Source: a virus
Taxonomy: Duplodnaviria > Caudoviricetes
DNA length: 54,458 bases
Virus record (IMG/VR): IMGVR_UViG_3300045256_000069
Span: 1-54,458 of that record
Reading direction: 5' to 3' (one strand)
Part shown: one piece after another, positions 21,730 to 39,855 of the stretch
Position numbering within the stretch: the first letter of the stretch is position 1
Layout of the letters: the number at the start of each line of letters is the position of its first letter
Made by a program: the position numbers and the translations under genes
The notes under the pieces: generated by a model
What the model was told of the DNA's origin: nothing
Database searches by the model: none
What the model saw: the letters and a program-made list of their open reading frames with translations, nothing else

Positions 21730-22780
21730 TGACCTTGAACTCCCGTTCCTTGATGAAGTCTGCGTCTGCGCCTGTCAGCTCAGCGCGGCAAATCGATGCA
21801 AACTCGCACCACTTGCAGTGCTGGTCAATCGTTTTGTGCTTCTTCTTTCCGATATTGTCTCGCATGTCGATTGCGGCCTCAACGAAGCCTTCGTACACGT
21901 TGTCCACAACGTTGCGAGAGATGGGCGTGAACACGCGGAAGAAATACTCGTTGCGGTTTTCGGCGAGCGACTTCAGTAGCGTCGGGTAGTTCTTCGCCTT
22001 GAAGCCATTCTCCTTGCACCACTGCTTGAACACGCTGGGCAACGAGTCGATCTTGGCCTGTGAGGGCTGACCGTTCTGAAGCAGCTTCGGGATCGCCGGC
22101 GGCTTCGACCGGATGTAATTCCACAGGGTGCCGTCGACCGGCTTCCAGCCGAGGATGTCCATCGCCTTCGCGTACACCGACGATTGCACGTTGAGCCAGC
22201 GGAAGTCTTCGCTCGGGCGCATCTTGAATGTCTTGTGCTCAGCGAGTGCGCGGTTCGTGCGCCACTTCGCCACGCCGTCGATAATGCCGGTAAAGGCTAG
22301 GCCGTCGTCCAGCTCGATCTCGAACGCGTGCTCGGACTTCTTGCCGTTGATCTTGATCATCTGCAGGTCGCCCTTTTGCGACCAGTGCTCGAAGTAGTCG
22401 GTCATGATGTAGTCGATGTCGACCAGAATGTCGCCATACATCTCGACCTCGGCGCTGAACATCTTGCGAGTGTCCATATCGACGTTGAGCGCCTCACGCC
22501 AGTCCTCGCCGTTCGCATCCAGCTCGATGGCCCTGTGAACGATCTTGCCGAACGCGAACGGGCGCTTGGTGCGCTTGGGCTCGAGTCGTTCGACGTGCTT
22601 CAGGTGCGCAGCGTACTTGCAGCGCAGCCACTGCTTCACTTTTGACTGGCCGACTTTGAAGACGCTTGAGCTGCCTTCCACTTCGCCAGAGTTATGCCCT
22701 TTCCCCACGGGCCGATCTTCGCGTCCGCCTCGAGCGGGACGCTCAGCTTGATCTCGAACACGTCGAGCAGTTTTGGCCAT
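21680..22780 (-). CDS. Cas4-like PD-(D/E)XK exonuclease
   Basis: N-terminal C, FG..VH, G.ID, EHKT, Q...Y and C..CEF..IC motifs. Confidence 0.85.
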   Translation of the reverse strand: MAKTARRVRDQAERPARGGREDRPVGKGHNSGEVEGSSSVFKVGQSKVKQWLRCKYAAHLKHVERLEPKRTKRPFAFGKIVHRAIELDANGEDWREALNVDMDTRKMFSAEVEMYGDILVDIDYIMTDYFEHWSQKGDLQMIKINGKKSEHAFEIELDDGLAFTGIIDGVAKWRTNRALAEHKTFKMRPSEDFRWLNVQSSVYAKAMDILGWKPVDGTLWNYIRSKPPAIPKLLQNGQPSQAKIDSLPSVFKQWCKENGFKAKNYPTLLKSLAENRNEYFFRVFTPISRNVVDNVYEGFVEAAIDMRDNIGKKKHKTIDQHCKWCEFASICRAELTGADADFIKEREFKVSESNQHEDEIAAKLDE

Positions 22781-25167
22781 CTCATGATCTCCAGCATTCG
22801 ATTGTGGACACGCTCGAGGTAGTCATTGCGAACCTCGATAAGACACGCATCATGCACAGTTGCGACAGGATAGACAATAGGTTCCGGGAACTCTTCTCTC
22901 AACTGAAGGAGCGACATGAGATTTAATTCGTTCGCGAACGATTGGACTGGTGAGTTGATTGCCTGACGTTCTGCTTCCATGCGCTCCATTGTCTTCTCGC
23001 GCGCCATGGCAGCTGGCAGTCGACGTTTACGACCGGACAGTGATCGCACGAAGCCGTGGCGCCGCGCGTGCTTGCGCTGCTGCTCGTGCCAATCCTCGAA
23101 GCCGGGGTAGAGGTCGAAGAAGTTGATGCGGCTTTCCTGTGCTTCCTCTTCGGTCACGATGACATCGTAGTTGTCCCGCGCGTAGATCATGAACTTCTTC
23201 CACCACATACCGAACAGGTAGCCGAAGTTCACGGCCTTAGCTTTCTTACGCAATTCCTTCCACGTCGGGTCGATCTCGGCACACGCATCGGGGCCAGCCT
23301 TGAACACGATGTCTAGCGCTTCGCCATAGTTCGTGATCTTGCGCTGCGTGAGCGTGCTCGCCGTTTCCTTGATCAGCTTGGGCGATGCACCGCCACGTCC
23401 CATCTCACGTATCATCGTGAGCCAATGCGCATCCTCGCCCTTGTGGAACACACGCAGCATGTTGGTCTCGTTCGCCAGCTCGGCCGCAATGCGTAGCTCG
23501 ATCTGTGACAAGTCGACTTCCAGCAGCGTGTACCCCTCGGGCGCGGTGATCAGCGACCGGATGCGAGGATCGCGTGGCACCTGCTGCAGGTTCGGATGCT
23601 CACAGGACAAACGACCCGTGACTGTGCCATGCAACTTGAACGAGGGATGAATGCGGCTGCCTTCAAGGAATGGCTTCCAGCCTTCGATGAATGACGACAG
23701 TTGCTTCTGCGCCGCACGCCACCTAAGCAACGCCTTGGCGATTGGATGATTGATGCGCTTGAGCACCGACTCGCTGCACGAGTCTGCGCCGCCCTTCGTC
23801 TTCTCGACCGACTTGATCTTGAGCTTGGTGAACAGCAATTCGCCGAGCTGCTTCGGTGAGCCCCAATTGATGTCGCCATAGGGCTTCAGCTCTGCGAGCG
23901 CACCAGCGATCTCATTGCGCAGGTATTCCTCGGCAACCTCGAACTGGTCCACGTTGATGAAGACGCCATGATACTCTATGCGAGTGAACAGCTTGGCGCA
24001 CGGAAACAAGATTTCATCGTAGACCTTGGCGACCTCGGGGTCCTTGTCGAGTTGCTTGCGCAGCTTGAAGTGAAGCTTGCGGGTGTAGAGCAGGTCTTTG
24101 CCCTGATACTCGCAACACTCGGCGAGCGGGCCACGAAACTGCTTGACCTCCTTGGACACGTCATAGTCGGGCGCGTTGAAATGAACCTTGCTTAGGAACT
24201 TGAGGCCGTGCTCGCTGTTCTCGTCAATCATGTAGTGCATGAGCATGGTGTCGCTTTCCCAATGCTCAAGCCAGTTGTAACCGTATCGCACCCACGTCCA
24301 CAGGAAGTCGAACTTGCCGTTCTGCGTCGTGAACCGGACGTCTCCTTCCTGAAGCTTCCAATTGATCTTGCGCATCATGCGCTTGATGTCTTTGAACGTC
24401 CACTTAACCTCGTCGTGGATCAGTGGGATCGTCCAGTGTGCGCGCTTCGTGCCGAAGCCGAGCGACATGATCTCGGCACCAAACTCCCAAGGGTACAGGC
24501 CACTCGTCTCGAGGTCATAGCTGGTCAGTCCGTAGAAGTCATCGAGGAACTCATCGAACGTGTCCCAGTCTGTGACAATACGAAGGTTGAGCTCCTCCTC
24601 CTTGCGGATCGCGCCGTTCTCAACGATGTCGGCGAAGTTTTGCAGGTCATGCTGCAGGATCACTTCCTGCCGCGGATCGTACTCGACGTAGCTTGGCGAG
24701 TATATCGGGAAGAAGATCATCGAGACGTCGCCACTCTCCGCAGTCACCGGTCGACCGCGATGGTTCTTGATGCCCGTCTTGTTCATCACGCCGGCTAGGG
24801 CTGTGCTCCCGACCACCAGGACGAACTTCGGTTGCACCTCGGCGATCTGTGCATCGAGCCATTTGCGGCATGCCTTTATCTGTGCTTTGGTGGGCTTGTC
24901 CGTCGCGCAACTGACGGCATAGCAGAAGAACATCTTGCTGGTGTCGAGGCCGACATCCTCGAGCATCTCGATCAACTTGTCGGGCGGTTTGATCTCGCCA
25001 CGCTTTTGCTCACGCTCACTCGGAGCGTCGAGCACGACCATGATCTTGCGATGCTTGATCGGTGATCCCAACAAACAAGCCCGGTCAACTGTTGCACCGA
25101 GCTTGCAGAGGCGGCAGTTGACGTCCCGCTTGAGCGGAGCGTCCAGGTTAATCTCGAGCTGGCTCAT
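22636..25167 (-). CDS. polA: DNA polymerase family A with N-terminal UDG-like domain and 3'-5' exonuclease
   Basis: DLETSGL (ExoI), NGKFD, TGRLSC..PNLQQ, DLSQIELR, KAVNFGYLFG and VHD motifs; start MSQLEINL is ATGA-coupled to the deaminase. Confidence 0.93.
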   Translation of the reverse strand: MSQLEINLDAPLKRDVNCRLCKLGATVDRACLLGSPIKHRKIMVVLDAPSEREQKRGEIKPPDKLIEMLEDVGLDTSKMFFCYAVSCATDKPTKAQIKACRKWLDAQIAEVQPKFVLVVGSTALAGVMNKTGIKNHRGRPVTAESGDVSMIFFPIYSPSYVEYDPRQEVILQHDLQNFADIVENGAIRKEEELNLRIVTDWDTFDEFLDDFYGLTSYDLETSGLYPWEFGAEIMSLGFGTKRAHWTIPLIHDEVKWTFKDIKRMMRKINWKLQEGDVRFTTQNGKFDFLWTWVRYGYNWLEHWESDTMLMHYMIDENSEHGLKFLSKVHFNAPDYDVSKEVKQFRGPLAECCEYQGKDLLYTRKLHFKLRKQLDKDPEVAKVYDEILFPCAKLFTRIEYHGVFINVDQFEVAEEYLRNEIAGALAELKPYGDINWGSPKQLGELLFTKLKIKSVEKTKGGADSCSESVLKRINHPIAKALLRWRAAQKQLSSFIEGWKPFLEGSRIHPSFKLHGTVTGRLSCEHPNLQQVPRDPRIRSLITAPEGYTLLEVDLSQIELRIAAELANETNMLRVFHKGEDAHWLTMIREMGRGGASPKLIKETASTLTQRKITNYGEALDIVFKAGPDACAEIDPTWKELRKKAKAVNFGYLFGMWWKKFMIYARDNYDVIVTEEEAQESRINFFDLYPGFEDWHEQQRKHARRHGFVRSLSGRKRRLPAAMAREKTMERMEAERQAINSPVQSFANELNLMSLLQLREEFPEPIVYPVATVHDACLIEVRNDYLERVHNRMLEIMRWPKLLDVFEIKLSVPLEADAKIGPWGKGITLAKWKAAQASSKSASQK

Positions 25168-25628
25168 TGATCCACAAACTGACCCGTTTCCCAATTGATC
25201 ATATACCCGCTCGGCGTCAGCCTGAACAGCGAGACTCCAGCCGCCTTGAACCCGACGAGGTGTTGCCAACTGCGGTATTCGTCGCGATACACCACGCGCT
25301 TGATGCCCGACTCGATGACCTTGATCGTGCAGGCCTCACAGGGCGAGTTGGTGACATACAACGTCGTGGCGCCGTCGCACACGAAACCCTTGGCGGCTGC
25401 GCGCCTCAAGGCGTTGTCCTCGGCGTGCACCGAGCGCGTGCATGAGGGTATGCCGCAATCAGGACCTGTGCAGTGCTCATCGCCGCTCGGCGGGCCGTTG
25501 TAGCCGACGCTGACGACATCGTTGGCGTGGACGATGATCGCGCCGACGTTGAGACGCTTGCAGGTCGAGCGACGAGACGCCGCCTCGCACATCATCATCC
25601 ACATCTGGTCTCTAGAGATACGTGTCAC
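25164..25628 (-). CDS. dCMP deaminase
   Basis: RSTC.R..VGA, GYNG, HAE.NA and SPC..C zinc motifs. Confidence 0.92.
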   Translation of the reverse strand: MTRISRDQMWMMMCEAASRRSTCKRLNVGAIIVHANDVVSVGYNGPPSGDEHCTGPDCGIPSCTRSVHAEDNALRRAAAKGFVCDGATTLYVTNSPCEACTIKVIESGIKRVVYRDEYRSWQHLVGFKAAGVSLFRLTPSGYMINWETGQFVDQ

Positions 25629-26485
25629 TTGTCCCCTCCAAACATGGCGATGTAGTCATTGCGGAACATGTGGAACGAAGTGATGTGCATCACCAGGTTG
25701 CCGGCTTTGACCTCGTTCCATTTGGGATCGCGTTCCCTCAAACGAGCCATAACCCACAGAAGGAGACGCCCAGTAAGATAAACGTCATCACGGAAATGTC
25801 GGACGAAGTCGCAGCTTCGAAGGCCATATACGCAGTGCAGAGCACCACCGCGCATAATGAAATGATAGCCCAGAGTGCACGGCAGTCGTCCACCATGATG
25901 GGCCCCAGTGTCTTCGGGAAAGAAGATTGGCATATACGCCTGGCGCGTGAGAGGCTGTTCCTCCAAAAGCTTGATGATGTCATTGAGGTCTCCGTACCTG
26001 TGGTGGATGCCGAGGTTCTCGAACTCGAGCGAATGGATCGTCCCTGGCGCATCAAATTCCTCACGAAACTCCTCTGCAGTTCGTGTCGCCTGGTCAACGA
26101 AGCCAGCACGACGCGGCCAATAGCGCTCCATGTAGTTGTGATTGAACTTGCCCGAGGGATCGCGGAACGTGTCGGCCGACTTGTTGAACGGCCAGTTCTC
26201 CCACTCGACGCCCGGATTGATCGGCTCGCCACAGACTCGCTCCTCGAAATGCTTGTCCGCCCAAGGCAGGTTCGGCCTCACTCGAGCTGCGAAGTCGGCG
26301 AGGTTCTCGGGCACCGGCGCCGACAGACTGTAGTTCAACAGCTCGTGCGTCGCCATCTCCGGACGCTGGCTGATGTCGGTGCCCTGCCACTTCTCGGTGT
26401 GCACCAGCTCCGAATAGTCGCGGAAGTCCCTCGTCGCGTGAAGGATCGCCGCGTTCCACGACCAGTGGTTACTCACTCTCATCAT
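25625..26485 (-). CDS. Thymidylate-synthase-fold enzyme 1 (probably dCMP-modifying)
   Basis: TRQA, catalytic PC, RSCDFVRHFRDD (Asp at +8 from the RSxD Asp) and SFH motifs. Confidence 0.8.
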   Translation of the reverse strand: MMRVSNHWSWNAAILHATRDFRDYSELVHTEKWQGTDISQRPEMATHELLNYSLSAPVPENLADFAARVRPNLPWADKHFEERVCGEPINPGVEWENWPFNKSADTFRDPSGKFNHNYMERYWPRRAGFVDQATRTAEEFREEFDAPGTIHSLEFENLGIHHRYGDLNDIIKLLEEQPLTRQAYMPIFFPEDTGAHHGGRLPCTLGYHFIMRGGALHCVYGLRSCDFVRHFRDDVYLTGRLLLWVMARLRERDPKWNEVKAGNLVMHITSFHMFRNDYIAMFGGDK

Positions 26486-27293
26486 CGTCCGGGTCCTTGT
26501 ACTCGTTGCGATAGCCGGGGTGGTTGTCGGCGATGTACTTCTGCAGCTTCGCCATCAGCTTCGGATTGATAAGCTTCTGCGCCTCGTCATGCACGCGCAT
26601 TGCCTGTGCGAACTTCTGGATGCCGCGCTTGTGTTCGGGGCACAGGTAACGACCGGACCACTTGATGATCCAGTCATAGTAATGCTTGTCCTTCGCCTTC
26701 AGTGCGTCGAGCTCGCCAATCGGGTCATCGAGCCACGGCAGCAGCACCACGAAGTACATCGGGTGGCAGGTGACATTGGCGAAGTGGAAATTGATCTCCT
26801 GCACAGGGCAGCCATCGAAATTAAATCTAGAGAGCAGATCGTCGCGCAGGAACACGAGGTCTGCCGGAAACTTCTTGAACAACTCGGTAGTGCGATAGAA
26901 CACGTCCACTGCTGTGGCACGTTGCTTGCCAGCGAGGTACGTCAGCGACACGGCCTGTAGACATGGCCCCATCACTGACGCACGCTTGCTTTTCTTCTCG
27001 GGATCGTTCTTGATGTAGTGGTTATAGCAATGGAACGACACGGAGCCATACTTGTCCTGCTCCTTGCGACGTTCCCACAGCTGAACCGCCACGGCGAGCG
27101 ACTCCTCGTGCAGGTAGAGCTTGTTCAACGCGCGCCGCTTGTGCGACGTGTAGCCCGCGTGTTCATACTGCAGGTCCGCCTCGATGGCATCGAAGGTGAA
27201 GTGGACGTTGCGAATGATCTTGCGGGCACCGGAGAAGAAGTCTGCCTTGCGTCGAGACAGACGACATGCGTTGTGGAGCCAGCCTTCAAGCAC
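26469..27293 (-). CDS. Divergent thymidylate-synthase-fold protein 2
   Basis: GPCLQAVSL ... FYRTTELFKKFPAD parallels PC...YxRSxD(+8)D; overlaps TS1. Confidence 0.55.
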   Translation of the reverse strand: MLEGWLHNACRLSRRKADFFSGARKIIRNVHFTFDAIEADLQYEHAGYTSHKRRALNKLYLHEESLAVAVQLWERRKEQDKYGSVSFHCYNHYIKNDPEKKSKRASVMGPCLQAVSLTYLAGKQRATAVDVFYRTTELFKKFPADLVFLRDDLLSRFNFDGCPVQEINFHFANVTCHPMYFVVLLPWLDDPIGELDALKAKDKHYYDWIIKWSGRYLCPEHKRGIQKFAQAMRVHDEAQKLINPKLMAKLQKYIADNHPGYRNEYKDPDDDESE

Positions 27294-27495
27294 GATGTTT
27301 CCTCGCCATTTGCAGGATGTCTCCCGCGGTCATCCCTTTACGATATGTGATCAATGCGCACATATCGCACTCTAGTGTGTCGCCGCAAGACTTGTTCTCT
27401 TCCTGACGACACACTGTCAACTGCTCGCCCTCTTCGAGATCATCAAGGGCGCACAGTATCGCCTCGAGCTTGGTCTTAAAGTGCTCGGTGGACAT
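27286..27495 (-). CDS. Small Cys-rich protein (69 aa)
   Basis: MSTEHFK...C...C...C...CDMC; fills the gap between the MazG-like gene and TS2, overlapping both. Confidence 0.55.
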   Translation of the reverse strand: MSTEHFKTKLEAILCALDDLEEGEQLTVCRQEENKSCGDTLECDMCALITYRKGMTAGDILQMARKHRA

Positions 27496-27961
27496 GATCC
27501 TCGACCAGGTCAGTGTGTCGAGGCGGTGTCCAGCCTGCGGGCTTGACGACATCGAACGCGGAGCCGCGCTTGCTCTCCTCAGCCGAGGCAACGCGTATCT
27601 TCTCCATGTTCTTCTTGTGCACTCGGCGCCAGGCCTCGTAGAAGCGATTGTACTCGAAGCCATGGAGATACGCCGTGCCGAGCGCGACATACACCAAGTC
27701 CACGATTGCGTCGAGCTGCTCTTCGAGAAGCTTGGTGATCCGCTCCTCATCGATCTTGCTGGTGGCGCGCTCGTTGCCGAAGATGTCGAGCAGCTCATCC
27801 CTGTGGGTCTTGTACTCGTCCAGCTCTTCCTGCATGAACTTGGTGCGGAAGAAGCCGAGCTCGGGCGGCAATGCACGAGGACGACCGTGGTAGGAAATCT
27901 CGAACTTGTGGTGGAAGTCGGCGATGTCCGCCATGAGATCAGGAGTTGACGTTTGCGTCAT
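27476..27961 (-). CDS. MazG-like/all-alpha NTP pyrophosphohydrolase
   Basis: FH.KF, EE..E, DA.VDL.YV..G, VH..NM.K and KP.GW.PP motifs. Confidence 0.88.
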   Translation of the reverse strand: MTQTSTPDLMADIADFHHKFEISYHGRPRALPPELGFFRTKFMQEELDEYKTHRDELLDIFGNERATSKIDEERITKLLEEQLDAIVDLVYVALGTAYLHGFEYNRFYEAWRRVHKKNMEKIRVASAEESKRGSAFDVVKPAGWTPPRHTDLVEDHVHRAL

Positions 27962-28442
27962 AGCACGCTCTCACAATGAGTTGGACAGTCTCGTCGAACC
28001 GCTCGCCGAGACGATACATGATATTGGCATGGCGAAGCCCCCACGCCTGGTAGGCCGCCAGCAGATCGTTGTACTTTTCCTGCACGCCGGCGAGGTGCTC
28101 AGGATTGTCAGCTTCGGGATTGAACGTGTGACGAGCGAAGCCCTGTGCATCCGGCTGACAGAATACGAAGAGCGGCTTGCTTTCGTAGAAGCGTCGGATC
28201 AGCGGGGCCTTGATGTCGTCGCGCGAGCCGCGGATCATCGCGTAGATCGGCTGACTGACGCAGGGGTGTCGGTCGAAGAGAACGAAGTCGAGCTTCGCGT
28301 AGCGTTCAACTCGTTCGTTCATCTCGCCGGGATATTTGGGAGGACCCTCCGAAGGCTGCACAGGCCAATGAACGCGTGCGCGTATCGCTTCGAGGAGGGT
28401 AGATTTGCCGGCGGCATCGCAACCTTCAATAACAACGTTCAT
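27939..28442 (-). CDS. dNMP (thymidylate-like) kinase
   Basis: VIEG.D.AGKSTL P-loop, FDRH and S..IY motifs; RBS GGAG. Confidence 0.85.
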   Translation of the reverse strand: MNVVIEGCDAAGKSTLLEAIRARVHWPVQPSEGPPKYPGEMNERVERYAKLDFVLFDRHPCVSQPIYAMIRGSRDDIKAPLIRRFYESKPLFVFCQPDAQGFARHTFNPEADNPEHLAGVQEKYNDLLAAYQAWGLRHANIMYRLGERFDETVQLIVRACYDANVNS

Positions 28443-28472
28443 GCGCTGGTTTCTCCGTATCGACAAGACGTG

Positions 28473-28519: not shown

Positions 28520-28714
28520 ATGGACGATTACATCACGGCAAAAGAAGCTGCCGCAGAACTGGGCCTGAAGTATCACACCTTCATGAGCCGGTGCCGCCGC
28601 GGGAGGATACCTTTCCTCCGCAAGGGGTGGGCCGTGTTCATCAAGAAAGAGGACGTGCAGCGGGTTCGGGAAAATGGGCATCGTGACAGCAACCTGGCGC
28701 AAGCAGCCGGGTGA
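28520..28714 (+). CDS. Small excisionase/MerR-like HTH protein
   Basis: YITAKEAAAELG....T....RRGRIP motif. Confidence 0.75.
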   Translation: MDDYITAKEAAAELGLKYHTFMSRCRRGRIPFLRKGWAVFIKKEDVQRVRENGHRDSNLAQAAG

Positions 28715-30608
28715 TTTTTTCTGCATATCAACGAAGACTCGGGGAGGCGACTGGCAGGATCACTTCTTTAGCCGTGACCAATTCAGCCAAGTTAATCGGT
28801 TCATCGAAGAGAACGCGGACAAGAACCTTTACTGGTGTCCGCATGGCTTTTCGAAGAAGCGACGGCTGAAGAAGTACGCGGTCAAACCGAAGCTCCTGTG
28901 GGCAGACCTCGATCACGTTGATCCGCGCAAGTTAAACGGCACACAGCCGACGCTGGCGTGGGAGTCGTCACCAAATCGGTTTGCCGGCATCTGGCATATC
29001 GACCAGGAGATGACAGAGGAGCTCAACCAGTCGCTCACTATGTCGATTGGTGCCGACCGTGGTGGCTGGGACTTGACGCAGGTCTTGCGCATCCCCGGCA
29101 CGACGAACTACAAATATGGCAAGGGCGTACCCGGCAGGAAGCTGTGGTGGAAAGCCGACGAGATCGTTCCGGTCAAGGAGCTGCGCAAGCATCTCAAGCT
29201 GTCGATCAACACGACCGACGGTGAAGGCGGCTTCGTCAGTGATCGTGGGCTCGCACGCAAGATCTACGAGAAGTACGCCAAGCGCATGAAGCCCGACGTG
29301 CGCAAGATGATCCTCGCAGAACGCGCCGTCGGTGATCGCAGTAAGGTCCTGTGGCATCTCGGCCAGTCGCTCATCAACATCGGACTCACGCGCGATGAGT
29401 GGTTGACGCTCGTTAGCTCGACAGTGTGGAACAAGTTCGAGAAACATCCTCGCCAGCTAGAGAGGGAGTACGACAAGATACTCGGGCAGCGTCTACCGGG
29501 CGCGCGTGCAATCGATCTGTCGGACGATGAGGAAGCCGGCGAGGCACCACTGTTCGACTTCGAGGGTGGGCTCAAGCGGCTGAGCGACGAAGAAGAGCGA
29601 GACGTCAACTGGCTGATACCGGGATGGATCGCTAGATCGGAGATCACGATTGTCGAGGGCGATCCGGGCGTAGGCAAGTCGTGGTTCACTCAGTACATCG
29701 GTGCACTGGCGATCAAGGGCAAACGACTCAAGACACACCATCAATACATGAAGCGTGCGATGCACGGGACGAGCGTCTTGTATATCGACATGGAGAACGC
29801 GGTCAACGTCATCACTAAGCCTCGCATGACTGACCTCGGCCTGTCGAAGGAAGAGCAGCATCGCTTCATCGTGTTTGACAAACCGTTCTCGCTCACCGAT
29901 CCTGATGCAGTTGAGGCAGTGCGCAAATACCTCGAGAAGGTCAAGGGAACGCCTGACGAGATCGGACTGATCGTATTCGACACGATCAACGTCTATCTAG
30001 GCGACACTGACTCTCACAAGGCTGCTGAGGTCGCTCAAAGCATGTCGCACCTGACGCAGATGTGTCGCGACTTCGAGCTCGCTATCGTTGTCATCAGGCA
30101 TCTCACGAAAGGCTCACAGGGAGGCAGCGCGCTGTATCGAGGACAAGGCTCGATGGCGTTCGCCGGCAATGCACGCATGGTCGTCCGGATCGCGAAGCAT
30201 CCGATGCGTGACGATGGCACGCTCGTCGCCAAGGTCATCAAGACCAACATCTCTAAGTTCGAGCCTGCCCTGTGCTGGCGACTCGAGGAAGGCGAGAGAA
30301 AACCCGGTCGCGATCATACGCCGACGTGGGTGGTCATCGAGGACTTTGACCTCGACGTGAAGGACGACGACCTCGGCAAGGTCGAGGACAAGAAGAAGGA
30401 CAAGGAGAAGGGCGATCCGCTTACTGACGCCAAGATATGGCTGCAGTCGAAGCTCGACAACGAGGGCGCGTGTTTCGTGTTAGCCCTGCATGACGAGATG
30501 AAGAAGCGGAACAAGCCGTTCAATGAGAAGGTGCTCGACAAGGCGGCACGCGAGCTCAACGTGCATCGCAAGAAGGTCGGCAACTCGTGGAAGTGGTCAC
30601 TAAAATAA
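28674..30608 (+). CDS. Primase-helicase fusion (RepB-like primase + AAA_25)
   Basis: LWADLD, ESSP, LRIPGT.N.KY, GDPGVGKS, VFDT and RH..K motifs. Confidence 0.88.
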   Translation: MGIVTATWRKQPGDFFCISTKTRGGDWQDHFFSRDQFSQVNRFIEENADKNLYWCPHGFSKKRRLKKYAVKPKLLWADLDHVDPRKLNGTQPTLAWESSPNRFAGIWHIDQEMTEELNQSLTMSIGADRGGWDLTQVLRIPGTTNYKYGKGVPGRKLWWKADEIVPVKELRKHLKLSINTTDGEGGFVSDRGLARKIYEKYAKRMKPDVRKMILAERAVGDRSKVLWHLGQSLINIGLTRDEWLTLVSSTVWNKFEKHPRQLEREYDKILGQRLPGARAIDLSDDEEAGEAPLFDFEGGLKRLSDEEERDVNWLIPGWIARSEITIVEGDPGVGKSWFTQYIGALAIKGKRLKTHHQYMKRAMHGTSVLYIDMENAVNVITKPRMTDLGLSKEEQHRFIVFDKPFSLTDPDAVEAVRKYLEKVKGTPDEIGLIVFDTINVYLGDTDSHKAAEVAQSMSHLTQMCRDFELAIVVIRHLTKGSQGGSALYRGQGSMAFAGNARMVVRIAKHPMRDDGTLVAKVIKTNISKFEPALCWRLEEGERKPGRDHTPTWVVIEDFDLDVKDDDLGKVEDKKKDKEKGDPLTDAKIWLQSKLDNEGACFVLALHDEMKKRNKPFNEKVLDKAARELNVHRKKVGNSWKWSLK

Positions 30609-30655: not shown

Positions 30656-31603
30656 TCAGGCTGCCATGTCGAGCAGTGTGCTGAGCACCTTGTCCTTCAT
30701 CTGCGCAGTCTTGCCGACCCAGGCGCGCTCGAGGCGCTTGTCGGGCGTGCGCGATGCCAGGTGATCAGCCCAGTAGGTGACGGCGTTGAACACGCCCCAG
30801 GCGTTGCCCGGGACGGCGCCAGGCGCGCGCTCGTACACGTCGAGCAGCAACTTCATGCGCGGTGCGAACACGCCGGCTTCGGTGCGGTGCGTCACGAGCT
30901 GCTCGACATCATCGCCCTTCTGGAAAACCGGTGCGAGGATGCGCACCACGTCGTCCATGTTGACCTTGATCTTCGACAGCTTCTTGGCGTTCTTCTCGAA
31001 GCCCATGTGCACTTCCTCGGTCACGCCGAACACGTCCTTGGCGCGGTCGATGATCGAGTCGTCAAACTCCTTCCTGTGGTGGATGCGCATCTCGGTCGAC
31101 ACTTCGCGCAGCGCCATAGTCATGGTGTTCATGCACACGACGCGGACGTTGGTCGCCTTGAAGATCGCCGACTTGCCCTGCTCGTGCGGCGACGCCAGCA
31201 GCAGGTAGTTGCGCAGCTTGTCGCCCTTCGTGACCTCGATGTCACGCTTCAGGCGCGCCAGGCCCCAGATCAGCTTGCCGCCCTTGAGCGAGCCGGCCGT
31301 TTCCATCGTGGCGCCGCCCGCTTTCGCGAACGCGTCGAACAGCTTGAACGTATCGCGGTTCTGGTGGGGATGGTAGTCCTTGCCGACCACGTCGAGCACC
31401 TTGCCGTCGCTGTCGCGGACAAGAGCGTAGTGGCCGTAGACGTCCTTGCCGTCGGCCAGAAACATCTTCTCCTTGTTGACGCGCCAATCGATGCCGGCGG
31501 TCTTGAGCGCGGCGGTGGGCGTCGGGGCGTCAGCGACGTATTCGCCGAGGCCGTGCCACGGAACCTCGTTGGTATACATCATGGTCTCGACAGCTGCGGG
31601 CAT
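30656..31603 (-). CDS. DUF932 (TIGR03299-like) protein
   Basis: VETM.Y....PWHGLG, ETAGSL.GG, RVVC.NT and WG..NAVT...DH motifs; RBS AGGAG. Confidence 0.88.
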   Translation of the reverse strand: MPAAVETMMYTNEVPWHGLGEYVADAPTPTAALKTAGIDWRVNKEKMFLADGKDVYGHYALVRDSDGKVLDVVGKDYHPHQNRDTFKLFDAFAKAGGATMETAGSLKGGKLIWGLARLKRDIEVTKGDKLRNYLLLASPHEQGKSAIFKATNVRVVCMNTMTMALREVSTEMRIHHRKEFDDSIIDRAKDVFGVTEEVHMGFEKNAKKLSKIKVNMDDVVRILAPVFQKGDDVEQLVTHRTEAGVFAPRMKLLLDVYERAPGAVPGNAWGVFNAVTYWADHLASRTPDKRLERAWVGKTAQMKDKVLSTLLDMAA

Positions 31604-31642
31604 TGTAGTCTCCTGTGTTGAGCTCGTCATCGAGCATGACGT

Positions 31643-31781: not shown

Positions 31782-32099
31782 ATGACTGACCGCGCACACG
31801 TTGTTTTTGCCAAGATCAAGGGACGCTCGCGAGACACGGGCGCAGGAATGCCGGTGTACGGCGGAGACATCCAGTACTCCGAGACGCTGACTGTGAGTGC
31901 ATCGCCGCAGACCACTTCTATCTCCGCGCCGGACCAGACGTTCGACGTGTTCGCCGACATCACGACGGAGACGAGCTGCTGGGTTGCCACAGGTGCCACG
32001 CCTGCACCGGGAAGCAATCCCCGCTGGCTGCTGCTTGCCAACCAGAGCCTGACGCTTCGGCTGAAGTCCGGCGACAAGGTAGCTGTGGTGGCAGCATGA
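31782..32099 (+). CDS. Small beta-rich protein, candidate head-spike/fibre base
   Basis: 105 aa; C-terminal GDKVAVVAA; ATGA-coupled to the fibre-like gene. Confidence 0.55.
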   Translation: MTDRAHVVFAKIKGRSRDTGAGMPVYGGDIQYSETLTVSASPQTTSISAPDQTFDVFADITTETSCWVATGATPAPGSNPRWLLLANQSLTLRLKSGDKVAVVAA

Positions 32100-33433
32100 G
32101 GAACAGTCGGAACGTAAGACACTCACGACGCACCGGAACCGGTGGTAGCTCTTCAGGAGGTGACGACTTGCCCTCATACTATTCCGTCAACAGCCCCTCG
32201 GGTTCCGAAGGCGGCAACATGGTCTTCACGATCTCGCGCACTCAGGCGGGCATCGCGGAGCGCGTGAACTTCACGCTCACAGGTACAGCAACCAGCGGAG
32301 TCGATTACACACCGCCGGCCAATCTCTACGTCGACTTCCTCGCCGCAGACACGAGCAAGCAGGTCACGATCCCAGTCGCGACGGACTTGGTCAACGATGC
32401 GGCCGAGACCATCATCATGACGCTGACCAGCATCGTGAACACCTCGCGTCTCACTACTCCCGTGGGTACGGGGACGATCACCGACCTGACTGCAGCTCCT
32501 GTGTATACCGTCGCAGTGTCCGGCAGCCCGACAGCTGAAGCTGGCTCGGCGATGACGTTCACGATCACTCGCACAACGACTGGCCTGGCGCAGACGGCGA
32601 ACTTCACGCTGACGGGTACAGCGACCGAAGGAGTCGACTACACGACCTCCGCCTCGACCTCGGTGAGCTTCGCGGCCGGGGACACGTCGAAGACCGTGAC
32701 TATCACACCGCTGTCGGATACCAACTACGCTGAGAGCGACGAGACCGTTATCCTCACGCTGACCTCGATCACCGGCTCGGGCACTGGTAGTGTCGGATCG
32801 CCGGGCTCGGCTACGGGCACGATCACCAACGTGGTCACCTACGCCTACTGGGACAACGCGAACAAGGGCACGGGCAGCTTTGCTCCCGTCCTCGCCAACG
32901 TCAACAGCGTGCTGCGTTCTGTGAAGCCGAGCGCCGGTGGTCAGCGCGGCACAGTGCGCGGCAACGCGGGCAAGTCCAGCGGCAAGTGGTATTTCGAGCT
33001 GAAGCTTGTCTCGGGTACCGACGGCAACTTCGGCATGTCGCTCAACTCGGTCAGCCTCAACCAAGATATGTCGGGTGTCAACAACACCTTCCAGATCGTG
33101 ATCTTCAATGGCAACGTCTATGTCAATGGGTCATTGACGAGCGGCGTGACACCGAGGCAGCCCGGCGTCTACTTCTTCGCTCTCGACAGGGACGCGGGCA
33201 AGGTGTACGTCGGAACATGCACGACGGCAGGTGCGAGCGTCGCCTGGGCGAACAGCGCTAACCCCGATGCCGGAACGGGCGGGATCACATGGAACCCGTC
33301 CGGTGCAGTGTTCTTCGATGCAAGTCCGTACTGGTCGGGCTCGCAGACCGAAGTGCAAGTCAACTGCGGTCAGGATGCGTTCATCGGACCCAAGAACTCG
33401 GTCTGCACAACGTTCAATCCCTGGACCATCTGA
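32096..33433 (+). CDS. Calx-beta (x2) + SPRY/B30.2 domain protein, candidate fibre/adhesin
   Basis: Two FTI.R...NFTLTGTAT.GVDYT...F.A.DTSK.VTI...D....ET.I.TL repeats; SSGKWYFE and ALD.DAGK.Y SPRY-like motifs. Confidence 0.8.
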   Translation: MRNSRNVRHSRRTGTGGSSSGGDDLPSYYSVNSPSGSEGGNMVFTISRTQAGIAERVNFTLTGTATSGVDYTPPANLYVDFLAADTSKQVTIPVATDLVNDAAETIIMTLTSIVNTSRLTTPVGTGTITDLTAAPVYTVAVSGSPTAEAGSAMTFTITRTTTGLAQTANFTLTGTATEGVDYTTSASTSVSFAAGDTSKTVTITPLSDTNYAESDETVILTLTSITGSGTGSVGSPGSATGTITNVVTYAYWDNANKGTGSFAPVLANVNSVLRSVKPSAGGQRGTVRGNAGKSSGKWYFELKLVSGTDGNFGMSLNSVSLNQDMSGVNNTFQIVIFNGNVYVNGSLTSGVTPRQPGVYFFALDRDAGKVYVGTCTTAGASVAWANSANPDAGTGGITWNPSGAVFFDASPYWSGSQTEVQVNCGQDAFIGPKNSVCTTFNPWTI

Positions 33434-33936
33434 CGATACCAGGTGGGTGGGCCTCGACGCGTCCAACGCGCGTTCATCCCATCCACCTTCCACTTCGCCG
33501 CCATATACTGTCTATAGGCCGAGTGGACATCGTTGACGTGAGTGAAGTCGAGACCTCGCGCTAAGCTACGCGCACAGTTCACGAACTCCGTACGCTCGAC
33601 CGGGATACGCTTTCCCCTGATCAGCTCGGGCATTCGATCAGCGGCGCACAGGATGATTGTCGAGCTGGCGTGCTCACGATCATATCGCCGGCTGTATTCC
33701 TTCAGCAGCCACTCAGCGTGCAGGATCAACCACGACAGGTTGTCGGATGATGCACGCGCCCAGACAGCGCACGGGTGGTTGACGTGCGTCGGTCGATAGC
33801 CAAGATGCACGCCCATGACCTGTGACCAAGTCGTGCTGATCAGCTGTGCAGTCTCGAGCACCATCTTGACGAGGCGTCGATCATCGAGCGCTTCCGCGCA
33901 CAACTTCGCCGAGGGATGGGTTGCGAAGATGTTCAT
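33370..33936 (-). CDS. Pyrimidine-dimer DNA glycosylase family protein
   Basis: MNIF, VKM.LE.AQL, Y.PTH.NHPC..W and EY..RY...H motifs. Confidence 0.82.
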   Translation of the reverse strand: MNIFATHPSAKLCAEALDDRRLVKMVLETAQLISTTWSQVMGVHLGYRPTHVNHPCAVWARASSDNLSWLILHAEWLLKEYSRRYDREHASSTIILCAADRMPELIRGKRIPVERTEFVNCARSLARGLDFTHVNDVHSAYRQYMAAKWKVDGMNARWTRRGPPTWYRQMVQGLNVVQTEFLGPMNAS

Positions 33937-34460
33937 TGGAACCCCTTGAAGAACGGCCACTTCGCTTCGCGCGTCTGCTTGATGTGATCGGCGATGCTGC
34001 CCCACAATTTGGCTGCGTGCGTGTTGCCGGTCTTGAGCAGTCGACGGCCTGTGCTGCGCGTCCACTCCTCCATCTTCACGTTCTCCATGATCGCGCCCGT
34101 ATCATCGTTCCAGAGCGACGGCATGACGCGATCAGCCACGCCGTCGTAGTTGATGTGAGTGATGTAGGAGCGACGGATCAGACCGCTGCGCAACCAGACC
34201 ATGTAGATCGTCATGCCGCCGATCACGATGCCGTCGGGGTGCTTGTGCGCGATGTCGCGCGGGTCCTCGTGTCGCCGCTGAATGTAGAGCGTGCGATCCG
34301 GAAGCGGAGGCAGCTTCGCGGCGGTCACAGGACCGACGATGAGCGTGCGTCCCTTCGTCATGCCTTGGAACCAACGAAGGTCCTCAGCGTCGTTCCAGGG
34401 CAGCTTGCCATCGAGGCCGAGTTGTCCGTGTTTACCCACTGCTGCTATCAAGTCGACCAC
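33933..34460 (-). CDS. Dihydrofolate reductase
   Basis: LIAAV......G..GKLPW....DL.WF...T, LP.LP.R, VIGG..IY and Y.THI....AD motifs; GTG start with RBS AGGAG. Confidence 0.85.
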   Translation of the reverse strand: MVDLIAAVGKHGQLGLDGKLPWNDAEDLRWFQGMTKGRTLIVGPVTAAKLPPLPDRTLYIQRRHEDPRDIAHKHPDGIVIGGMTIYMVWLRSGLIRRSYITHINYDGVADRVMPSLWNDDTGAIMENVKMEEWTRSTGRRLLKTGNTHAAKLWGSIADHIKQTREAKWPFFKGFQ

Positions 34461-34668
34461 GTCGTCTCTCCTGTTGTTGCTCGTAGAACTTAAGCTTGTC
34501 GAGTCGTGCGCGCAACGCGTTGTTCTCTTCAATTGTCAGCGCGCGTGACCTGATCGCTTCGCTGTAGTTATGCACGAGCGAGCTGAGCAGGTTCACAGGT
34601 ACGCTTATGCTCCGTCGTCCCCGATGTCGTGCAATGGCGTTCTTGAGGAATTGAATTTCTTGTTCCAT
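34432..34668 (-). CDS. Hypothetical protein
   Basis: 78 aa; coiled-coil-like; tiles the operon. Confidence 0.5.
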   Translation of the reverse strand: MEQEIQFLKNAIARHRGRRSISVPVNLLSSLVHNYSEAIRSRALTIEENNALRARLDKLKFYEQQQERRRGRLDSSSG

Positions 34669-35560: not shown

Positions 35561-35694
35561 TCGAGCCCCCTCAGCTTGCGGATCGTTTTAATCCAGCGAA
35601 TTGCCCACGCGTCACCGCGCTTGGCATCAAGAATGATCTCGAGAGCTTTCGCCCCCGAATGACCATGACCTGTCAGCACCTGATAGTCGCTCAT
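35557..35694 (-). CDS. Hypothetical protein (45 aa)
   Basis: RBS AGGAGG; TGATG coupling. Confidence 0.5.
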   Translation of the reverse strand: MSDYQVLTGHGHSGAKALEIILDAKRGDAWAIRWIKTIRKLRGLD

Positions 35695-36401
35695 CACTTG
35701 ACCTCCTGTCTCAGCTTCACCTGGTTGCCGGCGGCGTTGCCCGCCCATGAACCCGATCCCGACTTGATCGACACCTGGCGATTGGACTTGCGCACACCCG
35801 CTTCGGCGAAGAATTGCTCGACCTCATCCTCGAGCTCCTTGCGGTGGCTGATGATTGCCAACGCGGTGCCCGTCTTGGGAGCCGGCAGCGCGAGCGCCTC
35901 GGACGCGGCAGCGTCGTTCGCCATCATGTCCTTGACCAGCGCCTCGACGCGAGCGAAGACACGCAGCGCGCACGCCTCCTTGAACGTGCGGCGAAACTCG
36001 GCGCGATCCGACTTGCTCAGCCCGCGCGGCAACGCCTGCTTGTAGAACGTCTCGATCTGACTGCACAGCCAGCCGTACGTCAGCTGCGCCGCATCGATGT
36101 TGTCCTCGCGGCCGACGAATGTCACCTTGTCGCTTTCGCGACCACCCGAGTAGCGGATGTACTTGCACCCGTACAGTCGGCCGGCGGCGTTCGCCATCCA
36201 CAGCATCCAACGCTTGTCGGCTTCGAACATTGCCGACTCACGCGCCTTCTTCTCGATCTTCTTGAACTCGGACTCGCTGATGCCGTGCTGCGTCATGAGA
36301 CGCATTGCCATCTGCATCGCAGTGGCGGCCTCGTGTTCGGTCGCGCCCTTGTCGTGGGCGACGGCGAGCAGCTTCTGGATTTTTTCCTTGATCGCAGACA
36401 T
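35694..36401 (-). CDS. DUF2786-domain protein
   Basis: KIQKLLA.A......EA..A...A..LM..HGI N-terminus; RBS AGGAGG. Confidence 0.8.
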   Translation of the reverse strand: MSAIKEKIQKLLAVAHDKGATEHEAATAMQMAMRLMTQHGISESEFKKIEKKARESAMFEADKRWMLWMANAAGRLYGCKYIRYSGGRESDKVTFVGREDNIDAAQLTYGWLCSQIETFYKQALPRGLSKSDRAEFRRTFKEACALRVFARVEALVKDMMANDAAASEALALPAPKTGTALAIISHRKELEDEVEQFFAEAGVRKSNRQVSIKSGSGSWAGNAAGNQVKLRQEVK

Positions 36402-36430
36402 CGTGTCCTCCTGTGTGTTTCGGTATAGAT

Positions 36431-36492
36431 ACTCTATCACAGCTACATGCTGCGTCAGGTACCGTACCCGGGCAGGGTTAACAAAGCGTTAA
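36431..36492 (-). promoter_or_regulatory. Class I CtrA-box promoter
   Basis: Box 36478-36492, 19 bp, CTGACG, 16 bp, TAGAGT. Confidence 0.75.
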
Positions 36493-38569: not shown

Positions 38570-39244
38570 TTAACGATCTTCGACCGGGACCATGATCACG
38601 TCGCGGTTGATGCGATGCTTGACCACGTAGCCGAACTCTCCGTTCAGCCAAGTCTCGATGTCGCCCTGCCGATAGCCGAACGGAATGCCGAGCCCTTTGT
38701 CCTCGAACGCGATCACAGGGCGCGCACGATTGATCGTGTCGACCGCCCCTCGCAGTGCGAGCATCTCCGCGCCTTCGATGTCGAGGTAGATCAGGTCCAC
38801 CTCTTCGCCGCCGGGCATCGCCATGTCATCGATGGTGATCGTCGGCAGACCTTCGCTCTGATCGTTGAACGTGATCTGGTGCGCGCCGCAGTTCCGATCC
38901 TCACGGAGTAGGCTGACGTGCTGCTTCGCTTTGCTCGTGAGAGCGAACGGCATGGGAGTGATGACGTTGGCGTAGTCCTTGACGTTGTAGAGCAGGGCCT
39001 TGTAGTTCGTCGGGTCCGGCTCGAAGGTATAGACGCGAGCGAAGTGCGCAGCGAACTTGACTGCCCACACACCGCAGTTGCCGCCAGCCTGGATGACTAC
39101 GCGTTTCCGTCGGCAGGCGTTGACGGCGAGGATGGCGTCGGTGTTGAAGGTATCGAAGACGACGGCTGCACACTCGGTGTCAGTGGCCGGCCAAAGATAT
39201 CCGCGTTCCCAGCGGTACCCTTCAGGCGCAGATCGAGATTCCAT
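38570..39244 (-). CDS. FkbM-family SAM methyltransferase
   Basis: QAGGNCG.W, FEPDP.N, TIDD and LDIEG.E..AL.GA..TI....PVI..E motifs. Confidence 0.88.
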   Translation of the reverse strand: MESRSAPEGYRWERGYLWPATDTECAAVVFDTFNTDAILAVNACRRKRVVIQAGGNCGVWAVKFAAHFARVYTFEPDPTNYKALLYNVKDYANVITPMPFALTSKAKQHVSLLREDRNCGAHQITFNDQSEGLPTITIDDMAMPGGEEVDLIYLDIEGAEMLALRGAVDTINRARPVIAFEDKGLGIPFGYRQGDIETWLNGEFGYVVKHRINRDVIMVPVEDR

Positions 39245-39855
39245 TTGATGTCCCTCGGCTTCGGATGCCCGTGGAAGATGACGACCCGCGCTTCGGGCGG
39301 AACGGGGCCACCGTGCATGGTTGCCTTGTAGCTGACGAAGTGACCGGGCACCATGTCCTGCCAGTACCGCACAGCCTGGTACTTCATCTGCAGCTCAATG
39401 AACGCCTGGTCGCCGCCCTCGGCGAACTCGCCCATCCAGCCGTGCGGGTTCTTCATGAACGTTTGCCAGATCACAGGCTTGATGTAGTTCGGGATATACA
39501 TGAACGACGATTGCATACCACGCGGCCGGTAGAAGTCGCGCAGGATACGGAACTCGGTGCCTGGCTGTGCGAGGTGGTGGCAGTTGTCCACAAGGATCGT
39601 GTCGAGGTCCATGTAGAGCAGATCGCCGAAGAACTTGTCCTGGTCGAACAGCTCCATCTTGCTCCACCAGCCGGGCAGGTTCCACGTCAGCGGGCGGATG
39701 TAGTGCCGCAGGCCAACAGACGGATCGTCGGTCAGGATGACGGGCGTCTGGCCGAAGCGATACTTGATCTGCTCCACCAGCGTGTCAACGTCGAGGTCTC
39801 GGTAGTATCCACCCGTCTTGTAGACGAGCACTATCTGTACCATTGCATCCCCCAT
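39097..39855 (-). CDS. GT-A fold glycosyltransferase (GT8-like)
   Basis: LTD, GWWSK.ELF, YMDLD (DxD), GDQ.FI and FHG.PKP motifs. Confidence 0.85.
   Translation of the reverse strand: MGDAMVQIVLVYKTGGYYRDLDVDTLVEQIKYRFGQTPVILTDDPSVGLRHYIRPLTWNLPGWWSKMELFDQDKFFGDLLYMDLDTILVDNCHHLAQPGTEFRILRDFYRPRGMQSSFMYIPNYIKPVIWQTFMKNPHGWMGEFAEGGDQAFIELQMKYQAVRYWQDMVPGHFVSYKATMHGGPVPPEARVVIFHGHPKPRDIKWNLDLRLKGTAGNADIFGRPLTPSVQPSSSIPSTPTPSSPSTPADGNA

Follow-up and report, generated by a model that had tools for sequence, protein, structure and literature searches.

Why would a phage keep two genes for proteins of the thymidylate synthase (TS) fold side by side, and what would such a pair make? The question is raised by IMGVR_UViG_3300045256_000069, an IMG/VR virus record of 54,458 bases that was analysed in its entirety (hereafter the window; 100% complete according to CheckV, ends classed as linear, G+C content of about 55–63%). 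Within the replication module of this phage, seven overlapping genes follow each other on the minus strand, encoding a deoxynucleoside monophosphate (dNMP) kinase, a MazG-like pyrophosphatase, a Cys-rich open reading frame (ORF) of 69 amino acids (aa), the TS-fold proteins TS2 and TS1, a dCMP deaminase and a family A DNA polymerase (PolA). From the kinase through the deaminase, the junctions overlap by 23, 20, 8, 17 and 4 nt, and the deaminase and PolA overlap by 4 nt if PolA begins at 25167. With an overlap at every junction, the seven-gene block is, judged from the sequence, translationally coupled. Both the gene order and the coupling had been proposed in an earlier reading of the sequence alone (the original prediction), and both were confirmed. 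The answer that we favour, and to which we give about an even chance, is that the operon is a T4-style nucleotide-pool module that makes a C5-modified deoxycytidine nucleotide before replication, and that the phage DNA carries modified cytosine.

TS1 (25625–26485, minus strand) is a divergent TS homologue. It matches phrog_160 (thymidylate synthase, 3.1e-25) and scored 21.1 bits against PF00303, under the gathering cut-off of 24.3 bits; many of its relatives have a precomputed PF00303 match. Its structural model (predicted local distance difference test, pLDDT, of 88.3) has the TS fold, with VIA Z-scores of 17.5–18.6 that are tied across the TS classes and a root-mean-square deviation (rmsd) of 2.7–3.5 over 203–231 residues. 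The motifs LPC and RSCD-FVRHFRD-D hold the key residues Cys203, Arg223-Ser224-Cys225-Asp226 and Asp234. When aligned with E. coli ThyA, T4 gp42 and the TS of phage XP12, Cys203 corresponds to Cys146 of ThyA, Arg223-Ser224-x-Asp226 to Arg166-Ser167-x-Asp169 and Asp234 to Asn177. TS1 has the fold of ThyA, the nucleophilic Cys within P-C and the Arg-Ser-x-Asp motif, but neither Asn177 nor a PF00303 score above the gathering threshold. Eight positions after the Asp of RSxD, ThyA has Asn, whereas gp42, the XP12 enzyme and TS1 have Asp. Among 45 TS1 relatives of 52–81% identity, C203, R223, S224 and C225 were invariant, D226 was conserved in at least 90%, and Asp234 was present in 45 of 45. The pattern R..C[TS]...RSCD-x7-D was recovered in 58 of 60 proteins occupying the TS1 position of related loci, the other two being mis-hits of the regular expression.

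In the characterised cases considered, an Asp at the position of Asn177 marks cytosine substrates (PMC13326640; PMC8670742). Exchange of Asn177 for Asp redirects TS to dCMP and is a hallmark of contigs with modified cytosine; of all TS positions, Asn177 and His147 show the strongest association with fully cytosine-modified contigs (PMC8670742). Given its Asp at this position, TS1 is predicted to act on a cytosine nucleotide. Two further signatures have been described, the exchange D169N for 5-hydroxy-dCMP synthases and an acidic residue at position 143 for hydroxymethylases (PMC13326640). By the first of them, TS1 would not be a 5-hydroxy-dCMP synthase, because Asp169 is retained as Asp226. 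At the position of ThyA-Leu143, three residues before the Cys, TS1 has the invariant Arg200 and not the acidic residue of the hydroxymethylase rule. The XP12 methylase has an Asn there, so the rule is imperfect and was not trusted for calling the product. A TS1 profile matched, among PDB entries, AfhB (9iqu, 4.7e-07), MilA (1.3e-06), the Asn229Asp variant of L. casei TS (7.4e-06) and T4 dCMP hydroxymethylase (2.4e-05).

The second protein, TS2 (26469–27293, minus strand), belongs to a family that is not captured by the searched Pfam, NCBIfam and PHROGs libraries. Pfam and NCBIfam returned no match, phmmer and hmmsearch returned no relevant sequence match in the PDB, and PHROGs gave only a weak match to phrog_34294, of unassigned function. 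In the ESM Atlas the protein falls into viral 'hypothetical protein' clusters, one of them with PF00303 on 10% of its members. A homologue search yielded 940 relatives, none with a Pfam domain, and a profile search of 1.84 billion representatives retrieved 291 clusters at E<=0.001, 221 of them at E<=1e-10. The cluster lengths reach about 290 residues (two are longer, 317 and 330, and the shorter ones are evidently partial hits), and no fusions are among them.

TS2 belongs to the TS superfamily by its fold and not by its sequence. The confident model of TS2 (pLDDT 88.9; predicted template modelling score, pTM, 0.85) retrieved with Foldseek exclusively TS-family structures among the PDB matches listed, 135 of them at E<=0.001 and headed by 9iqu (6.3e-06). 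VIA-align gave Z-scores of 14.8 to 9iqu (the dCMP hydroxylase of phage HY126; rmsd 3.6 over 180 residues), 14.4 to 9iqc, 13.7 to MilA and 11–12.4 to classical TS. The nearest neighbours of the model in BFVD were an 'uncharacterized protein' of phage PMBT14 and further phage proteins without a name; annotated TS and dCMP hydroxymethylases came next. The fold search thus agrees with the claim that both proteins are TS-fold (Z of about 18 for TS1), and a non-TS fold of TS2 was not borne out. The structural matches cover residues 1–189; residues 190–274 form an extra helical C-terminal part that is well conserved.

The candidate active site of TS2 comprises Cys111, Arg134, Glu137 and Asp145, located in the motifs GPC and RTTE-LFKKFPA-D, which like those of TS1 had been quoted correctly before. 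In the predicted secondary structure, Cys111 heads strand 112–120, strand 126–137 ends with R-T-T-E, and helix 141–156 contains Asp145, the same order of elements as for the Cys, RSxD and Asn177 of TS. Across 78 diverse members with identities down to 21%, none of which matched PF00303, only K52, Y60, C111 and D145 were invariant, and R134, E137, L56 and F142 were conserved in at least 90%. Such conservation, centred on the putative catalytic residues, would be expected of an active site and not of a relic. TS2 is hence a real, selected and probably catalytic TS-fold protein in which the roles of the individual residues are putative. As had been proposed, an Asp at the ThyA-Asn177 position, the nucleophilic Cys and the Arg of RSxD appear to be kept in both proteins, the TS2 residues as presumed equivalents; all of them are conserved family-wide. 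Their description as paralogs was, however, overstated: hhalign comparison of the TS2 and TS1 profiles gave probabilities of 0.1–0.5%, which is not significant, and no sequence similarity is detectable. The insignificant alignment pairs C111 with C203, R134 with R223, E137 with D226 and D145 with D234, and served as a consistency check only.

The distribution of the two genes ties them closely together. With tblastn, TS2 was found in 16 phage records, among them the Brevundimonas phages Strzyga and Polewnik, the Serratia phages Serbin, Tlacuache and Opt-155, the Pseudomonas phages PMBT14, Almagne and Lebethron, Yersinia phage P744, a Desulfofustis phage and two uncultured Caudoviricetes. TS1 was found in 115 records, including 68 Gordonia, 10 Clostridium, 9 Mycobacterium and 4 Streptomyces phages. 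Annotated neighbourhoods keep the order kinase, pyrophosphatase, hypothetical protein, TS, deaminase, PolA and nuclease. In 56 IMG/VR loci, gathered with the TS2 alignment and then mapped by tblastn, TS1 lies downstream of TS2 in 55, and the remaining locus stops just after TS2; this arrangement is far from chance. The deaminase and PolA were each present in 53 of these loci, the kinase in 49 (upstream of TS2) and MazG in 47. A gap of at most 100 nt separates the matches to TS2 and TS1 in 37 of the 55 loci, and one of at most 300 nt in 45; in the ten loci with larger gaps, other ORFs or an HNH endonuclease are inserted, and two loci have the MazG gene inserted between TS2 and TS1. Serbin, PMBT14, Strzyga and MW202777 carry the pair too, and Clostridium phage E1 encodes a TS2 member (4.8e-27) directly upstream of a TS1-type gene, with no deaminase between TS and PolA.

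Proteins of actinophages occupy the same position and are annotated as 'hypothetical proteins', namely Muddy gp47 (locus L007, 3033–3926), Cleo gp42 (L065, 2503–3411), Zuko gp75 (L066, 2389–3450) and Triscuit gp64 (L067, 2045–3073). Searched with TS2 profiles (hmmsearch; databases of 4 or 8 sequences), these four gave E-values between 1e-6 and 6e-3, and three control proteins 0.11–0.75; the aligned stretch contains a G-x-C motif, and an SRT-x-Y-x7-D pattern is shared. Muddy gp47 had no BLASTP similarity to TS2, and an hhalign probability of 0.3%. From their sequences and position, the four are probably remote TS2 members, and the TS2-TS1 pair is probably present in actinobacterial phages such as Muddy and the Gordonia phages. 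In the Microbacterium phage Triscuit, a second annotated thymidylate synthase (L067, 4325–5122) directly follows the TS1-type gene; together with the upstream hypothetical protein, this cassette may hold three TS-related genes. Four related loci (L023, L050, L051 and L058) have a shorter, divergent TS1 that is 26–28% identical and retains RSCD-x7-D, a TS2 of 45–52% identity, and no match to the MazG query.

How does this locus relate to known systems? According to two MetaGPA studies, the joint occurrence of TS, PRA-PH and dCMP-deaminase domains is specific to modified contigs (PMC8670742), and a TS lies within 3 kb of 104 of the 149 deaminase genes in modified contigs but of 17 of the 277 in unmodified ones, with PRA-PH and DNA_pol_A and its exonuclease as top neighbours (10.1101/2024.12.05.627091). 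This modified-cytosine neighbourhood (TS, PRA-PH, dCMP deaminase/MafB19 and DNA_pol_A) has a domain set identical to that of the operon. Since the published neighbourhood is the same, the pathway type is already recognised. The claim that the kinase, pyrophosphatase and deaminase context fits cytosine replacement is thereby supported by published neighbourhoods (PMC8670742; 10.1101/2024.12.05.627091), while the pathway is less new than the original prediction had assumed and the new part is TS2. The MetaGPA studies worked from Pfam domains, whereas TS2 has no Pfam match, and their available portions mention no such gene. A search of the available papers found no account of another TS-fold gene preceding these TS genes.

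The same set of predicted activities is known from the dNTP-pool module of T4 (the dNMP kinase gp1, the dCTPase/dUTPase gp56, the dCMP hydroxymethylase gp42, the dCMP deaminase cd, and td/frd). The likeness extends to a separate route to dTMP (ThyX in relatives, dihydrofolate reductase (DHFR) in the window) and to the RSND-x7-D of gp42, which aligns with RSCD-x7-D of TS1. Unlike in T4, the genes form one overlapping operon beside PolA in a phage of about 54 kb, there are two Asp-bearing TS-fold genes, and the cassette has no linked DNA glucosyltransferase. Compared with gp42, TS1 has Arg instead of Asp or Glu three residues before the Cys and Asn at the position of Glu60. The flavin-dependent 5-hydroxy-dCMP synthases (RB69 gp48, DLP3 gp80 and HY126 AfhB; 9iqu/9iqc) provide the best structural match of TS2 and the best profile match of TS1, and share with TS1 a short C-terminus, an H-x-F motif and the Asp at position 177. 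Their Asp169-to-Asn change, visible as RSQN in AfhB, is however absent from TS1 (Asp226) and from TS2, where Glu137 stands in at least 90% of the 78 relatives, and unlike in these systems no arabinosyl- or glycosyltransferase cluster is present.

In the nucleotide flow that we favour, each step of which we infer, the MazG-like pyrophosphatase would convert dCTP and/or dUTP to the monophosphates. TS1 and TS2 would act as separate TS-fold enzymes, each using its own Cys for the attack on C6 of a cytosine nucleotide and its own Asp for reading the base, and at least one of them would place a C5 group on dCMP. The thymidylate-type kinase would phosphorylate the non-canonical dNMP, and the phage PolA would incorporate the modified nucleotide. 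The deaminase would supply dUMP for dTMP synthesis, carried out by a phage ThyX in about half of the relatives and here probably by host ThyA together with the phage DHFR. As to the product, a 5-hydroxymethyl or other non-reductive modification is the leading candidate, though short of an even chance; something else altogether is less probable, and 5-methyl is the least probable of the three.

The provision of thymidylate bears on this flow from two sides. ThyX-family matches were found in 16 of 34 related TS2-bearing records (4 of 5 and 12 of 29), or in 12 of 24 when only records of at least 90% completeness are counted, and in MW202777 ThyX lies between TS1 and the deaminase. A separate dTMP synthase in many relatives makes it unlikely that the TS1/TS2 pair is a dTMP synthase, and leaves the deaminase with an ordinary role as supplier of dUMP. 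The possibility that TS1 simply makes dTMP, one of those that would have spoken against the original prediction, is disfavoured. DHFR is encoded in the window 8 kb from the cassette (33933–34532, minus strand; PF00186 2.6e-13; phrog_316). At the family cut-off it was found in 0 of the 34 relatives, with one weak sub-threshold match, and it is an accessory folate gene of this phage only, outside the conserved cassette; in this phage it probably supports host ThyA. The general lack of DHFR in relatives mildly favours a chemistry without release of dihydrofolate. In several relatives (G003-G005, G015, G018 and G030), the ThyX-family matches span only model positions 59–190, within frames of 280–354 aa, which may represent a divergent or fused ThyX-like protein.

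Several observations weigh against the proposed module. No ThyX was found in the window, whose sole PF00303-like gene is TS1, below the cut-off. Judged from a tentative alignment at 18% identity, TS1 is atypical in several respects, with some 60 inserted residues, no C-terminal tail, Asn72 in place of ThyA Glu58, Arg229-His230 in place of Leu172-Gly173 and Phe274 in place of Tyr209, and the rules derived from classical TS may not transfer to it. The presumed residue equivalences in TS2 rest on predicted secondary structure and on an insignificant alignment (0.5%). No enzyme that would decorate 5-hydroxymethylcytosine was found linked to the cassette, either in the cassette neighbourhoods or among the inserted ORFs. 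A kinase, a dUTPase, a TS and a deaminase would equally make up an ordinary dTTP pathway, and the solved structures closest to the pyrophosphatase are 3nl9 and DR2231, the latter a MazG-like NTP-PPase that we take to be specific for dUTP. Finally, no paper found in a literature search describes what the DNA of PMBT14, Serbin, Tlacuache, Strzyga, Muddy or the Gordonia phages is composed of. A search of sequencing runs listed no RNA dataset with this virus; the DNA datasets are environmental metagenomes represented as contigs, in which base modification is not visible.

A bolder reading, which we regard as possible but on the unlikely side, is that TS2 and TS1 constitute an unrecognised two-component TS-fold system that is shared by phages of Proteobacteria, phages of Clostridium and actinophages, and that produces either a cytosine derivative as yet undescribed in DNA or, through a novel route with two enzymes, a known one; TS2 would then be the factor missing from earlier single-gene assays. 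Closely allied, and in our view unlikely, is the narrower proposal that TS1 and TS2 are subunits of one obligate heteromeric enzyme or catalyse two consecutive steps on the same nucleotide, which the original prediction had put forward. One subunit would donate active-site residues to the other, or TS2 would rework the C5 group installed by TS1. Classical TS enzymes are dimers with shared active sites, and of the two Arg donated by the partner subunit TS1 keeps only one (TRQ, versus SRR in ThyA), while TS2 has, by alignment, K-Y at this place. The strict co-occurrence and adjacency in very distant phages (55 of the 56 loci, Clostridium phage E1 and the actinophage counterparts) and the overlap of the TS2 stop with the TS1 start codon point in the same direction. 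However, overlaps occur throughout the operon and are not specific to the pair, the MazG gene separates TS2 and TS1 in two loci and gaps exceed 300 nt in ten, and each protein has a complete-looking set of catalytic residues of its own. A prediction of the TS1:TS2 complex, run without controls, scored 0.00 and counts neither for nor against binding.

A pathway of the XP12 type appears slightly less likely still. Here TS1 would be a dCMP C5-methylase, 5-methylcytosine would replace cytosine, the deaminase would yield thymidylate from 5-methyl-dC nucleotides, DHFR would recycle dihydrofolate, and TS2 would be accessory. The cassette of XP12, a phage in which 5-methylcytosine replaces cytosine, is indeed similar, with an Asp177-type TS directly upstream of a deaminase-family gene and a DHFR in the genome; in XP12 the TS, the dCMP deaminase and DHFR stand in a row, and a HAD hydrolase and no TS2-like gene lies upstream of TS. 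The window has a DHFR and no ThyX. Furthermore, of seven Asp177 TS homologues linked to a deaminase, five produced 5-methyl-dCMP (5mdCMP), and one of the linked deaminases turned 5mdCTP into dTTP (10.1101/2024.12.05.627091). On the other hand, XP12 has no annotated MazG or kinase alongside, and the identity between TS1 and the XP12 enzyme is a mere 25%, the long C-terminal part of the latter having no counterpart in TS1. As the family of the present cassette does not conserve DHFR, this gene was rejected as evidence for a methylase. The absence of DHFR at cut-off from all 34 relatives, and the occurrence of ThyX in 16 of them, indicate that thymidylate is obtained at the family level independently of 5-methyl-dC deamination. 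The universally conserved TS2 would moreover be left without a role.

Lastly, an ordinary thymidylate supply (dUMP from the deaminase and the dUTPase, dTMP from TS1 despite its Asp, dTDP from the kinase, TS2 as a decayed or regulatory relic, and canonical DNA) accords with the four annotated names of de novo dTTP synthesis, with DR2231 as best solved relative of the pyrophosphatase and with the lack of reports, in the literature search, of unusual DNA from Muddy and similar widely handled carriers, but is improbable in view of the invariant Asp at the Asn177 position, a mark of cytosine substrates in the characterised cases considered (PMC13326640; PMC8670742), of ThyX in half of the relatives and of putative catalytic residues that are the most conserved ones in TS2.

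Replacement of cytosine before replication by TS homologues is a known counter-defence of phages. The published schemes considered here assign one TS-fold enzyme to each modified base; here, a second TS-fold gene that is invisible to sequence searches is tied to the first, and the pair spans a large group of environmental phages (the 291 representative clusters) as well as cultured ones. If TS2 is catalytic, annotations of the type 'thymidylate synthase plus hypothetical protein' conceal, in numerous phage genomes, a two-enzyme system, some phages, possibly including relatives of therapeutic mycobacteriophages, may have overlooked modified DNA, and the TS superfamily gains a new branch with a chemistry to be defined.

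The dNMP kinase (27939–28466, minus strand) is of the thymidylate type (phrog_761 thymidylate kinase, 2.3e-10), has a P-loop and matches TIGR00041 weakly. Its start is likelier the ATG at 28442, from which a normal P-loop N-terminus results, in agreement with the end coordinate given in the original prediction. The MazG-like, all-alpha NTP pyrophosphatase (PRA-PH; 27476–27961, minus strand; PF01503 9.6e-07, phrog_671 4.3e-19) is proposed to act on dCTP and/or dUTP, and its slot holds a protein annotated as 'dUTPase' in Serbin, Muddy and Cleo. The 69-aa ORF (27286–27495, minus strand), read from the sequence, contains five Cys and bridges the MazG stop and the TS2 start. No tblastn match to it was found in any related locus and no match in NCBIfam; a different, unrelated small ORF of 92–106 aa fills its position in ten related loci. 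The zinc-dependent deaminase (25164–25628, minus strand) affiliates with the dCMP-deaminase family (PF00383 2.4e-22; phrog_174 1.1e-42; PDB 2hvv, 1.1e-21), with dCMP or a 5-substituted dC nucleotide as predicted candidate substrates. The 'dCMP deaminase' of PMBT14 (L008, 6778–7737) is a protein of 319 aa whose N-terminal 180 aa or so belong to no known family; this part is a separate ORF in two IMG/VR loci (L011 and L053). PolA (22636–25269, minus strand; PF00476 3.3e-73, PF03167 1.6e-15, PF01612 8.4e-08) is the last large gene of the coupled block. It probably starts at the ATG at 25167, and carries a domain of the uracil-DNA glycosylase superfamily (PF03167) at its N-terminus, ahead of the 3'-5' exonuclease and polymerase domains.

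The ORFs that interrupt the cassettes of relatives were grouped by clustering, and a scan of ten representatives identified an Rv2179c-like exoribonuclease, an HNH endonuclease and a protein with a sub-threshold chance match to HydF_tetramer (E 0.005); the others belong to no family, and no extra modification enzyme was found among the ten. Elsewhere in the window, an ORF of 252 aa (39097–39855, minus strand) matches phrog_1962 'glycosyltransferase' (7.8e-45) and is about 35% identical to PmgQ of phage P1 and HdmD of phage P7, with no Pfam family. It was rejected as part of the pathway, as cassette-bearing phages are absent from its 32 records.

Just upstream of the kinase lies a sigma-70-like promoter match (28501–28473, minus strand; 9 of 12 consensus positions), which is weak evidence, the counts of promoter-like sites in the region being not above those of shuffles or chance. 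A terminator scan found no convincing terminator inside the operon. Upstream of the operon, a primase-helicase gene (28674–30608) is divergently oriented. Beyond the replication module are encoded a DUF932 protein (30656–31630, minus strand) and a Calx-beta repeat protein (32096–33433, plus strand), and a DUF2786/DUF7168 protein (35694–36440, minus strand) likewise lies just outside it.

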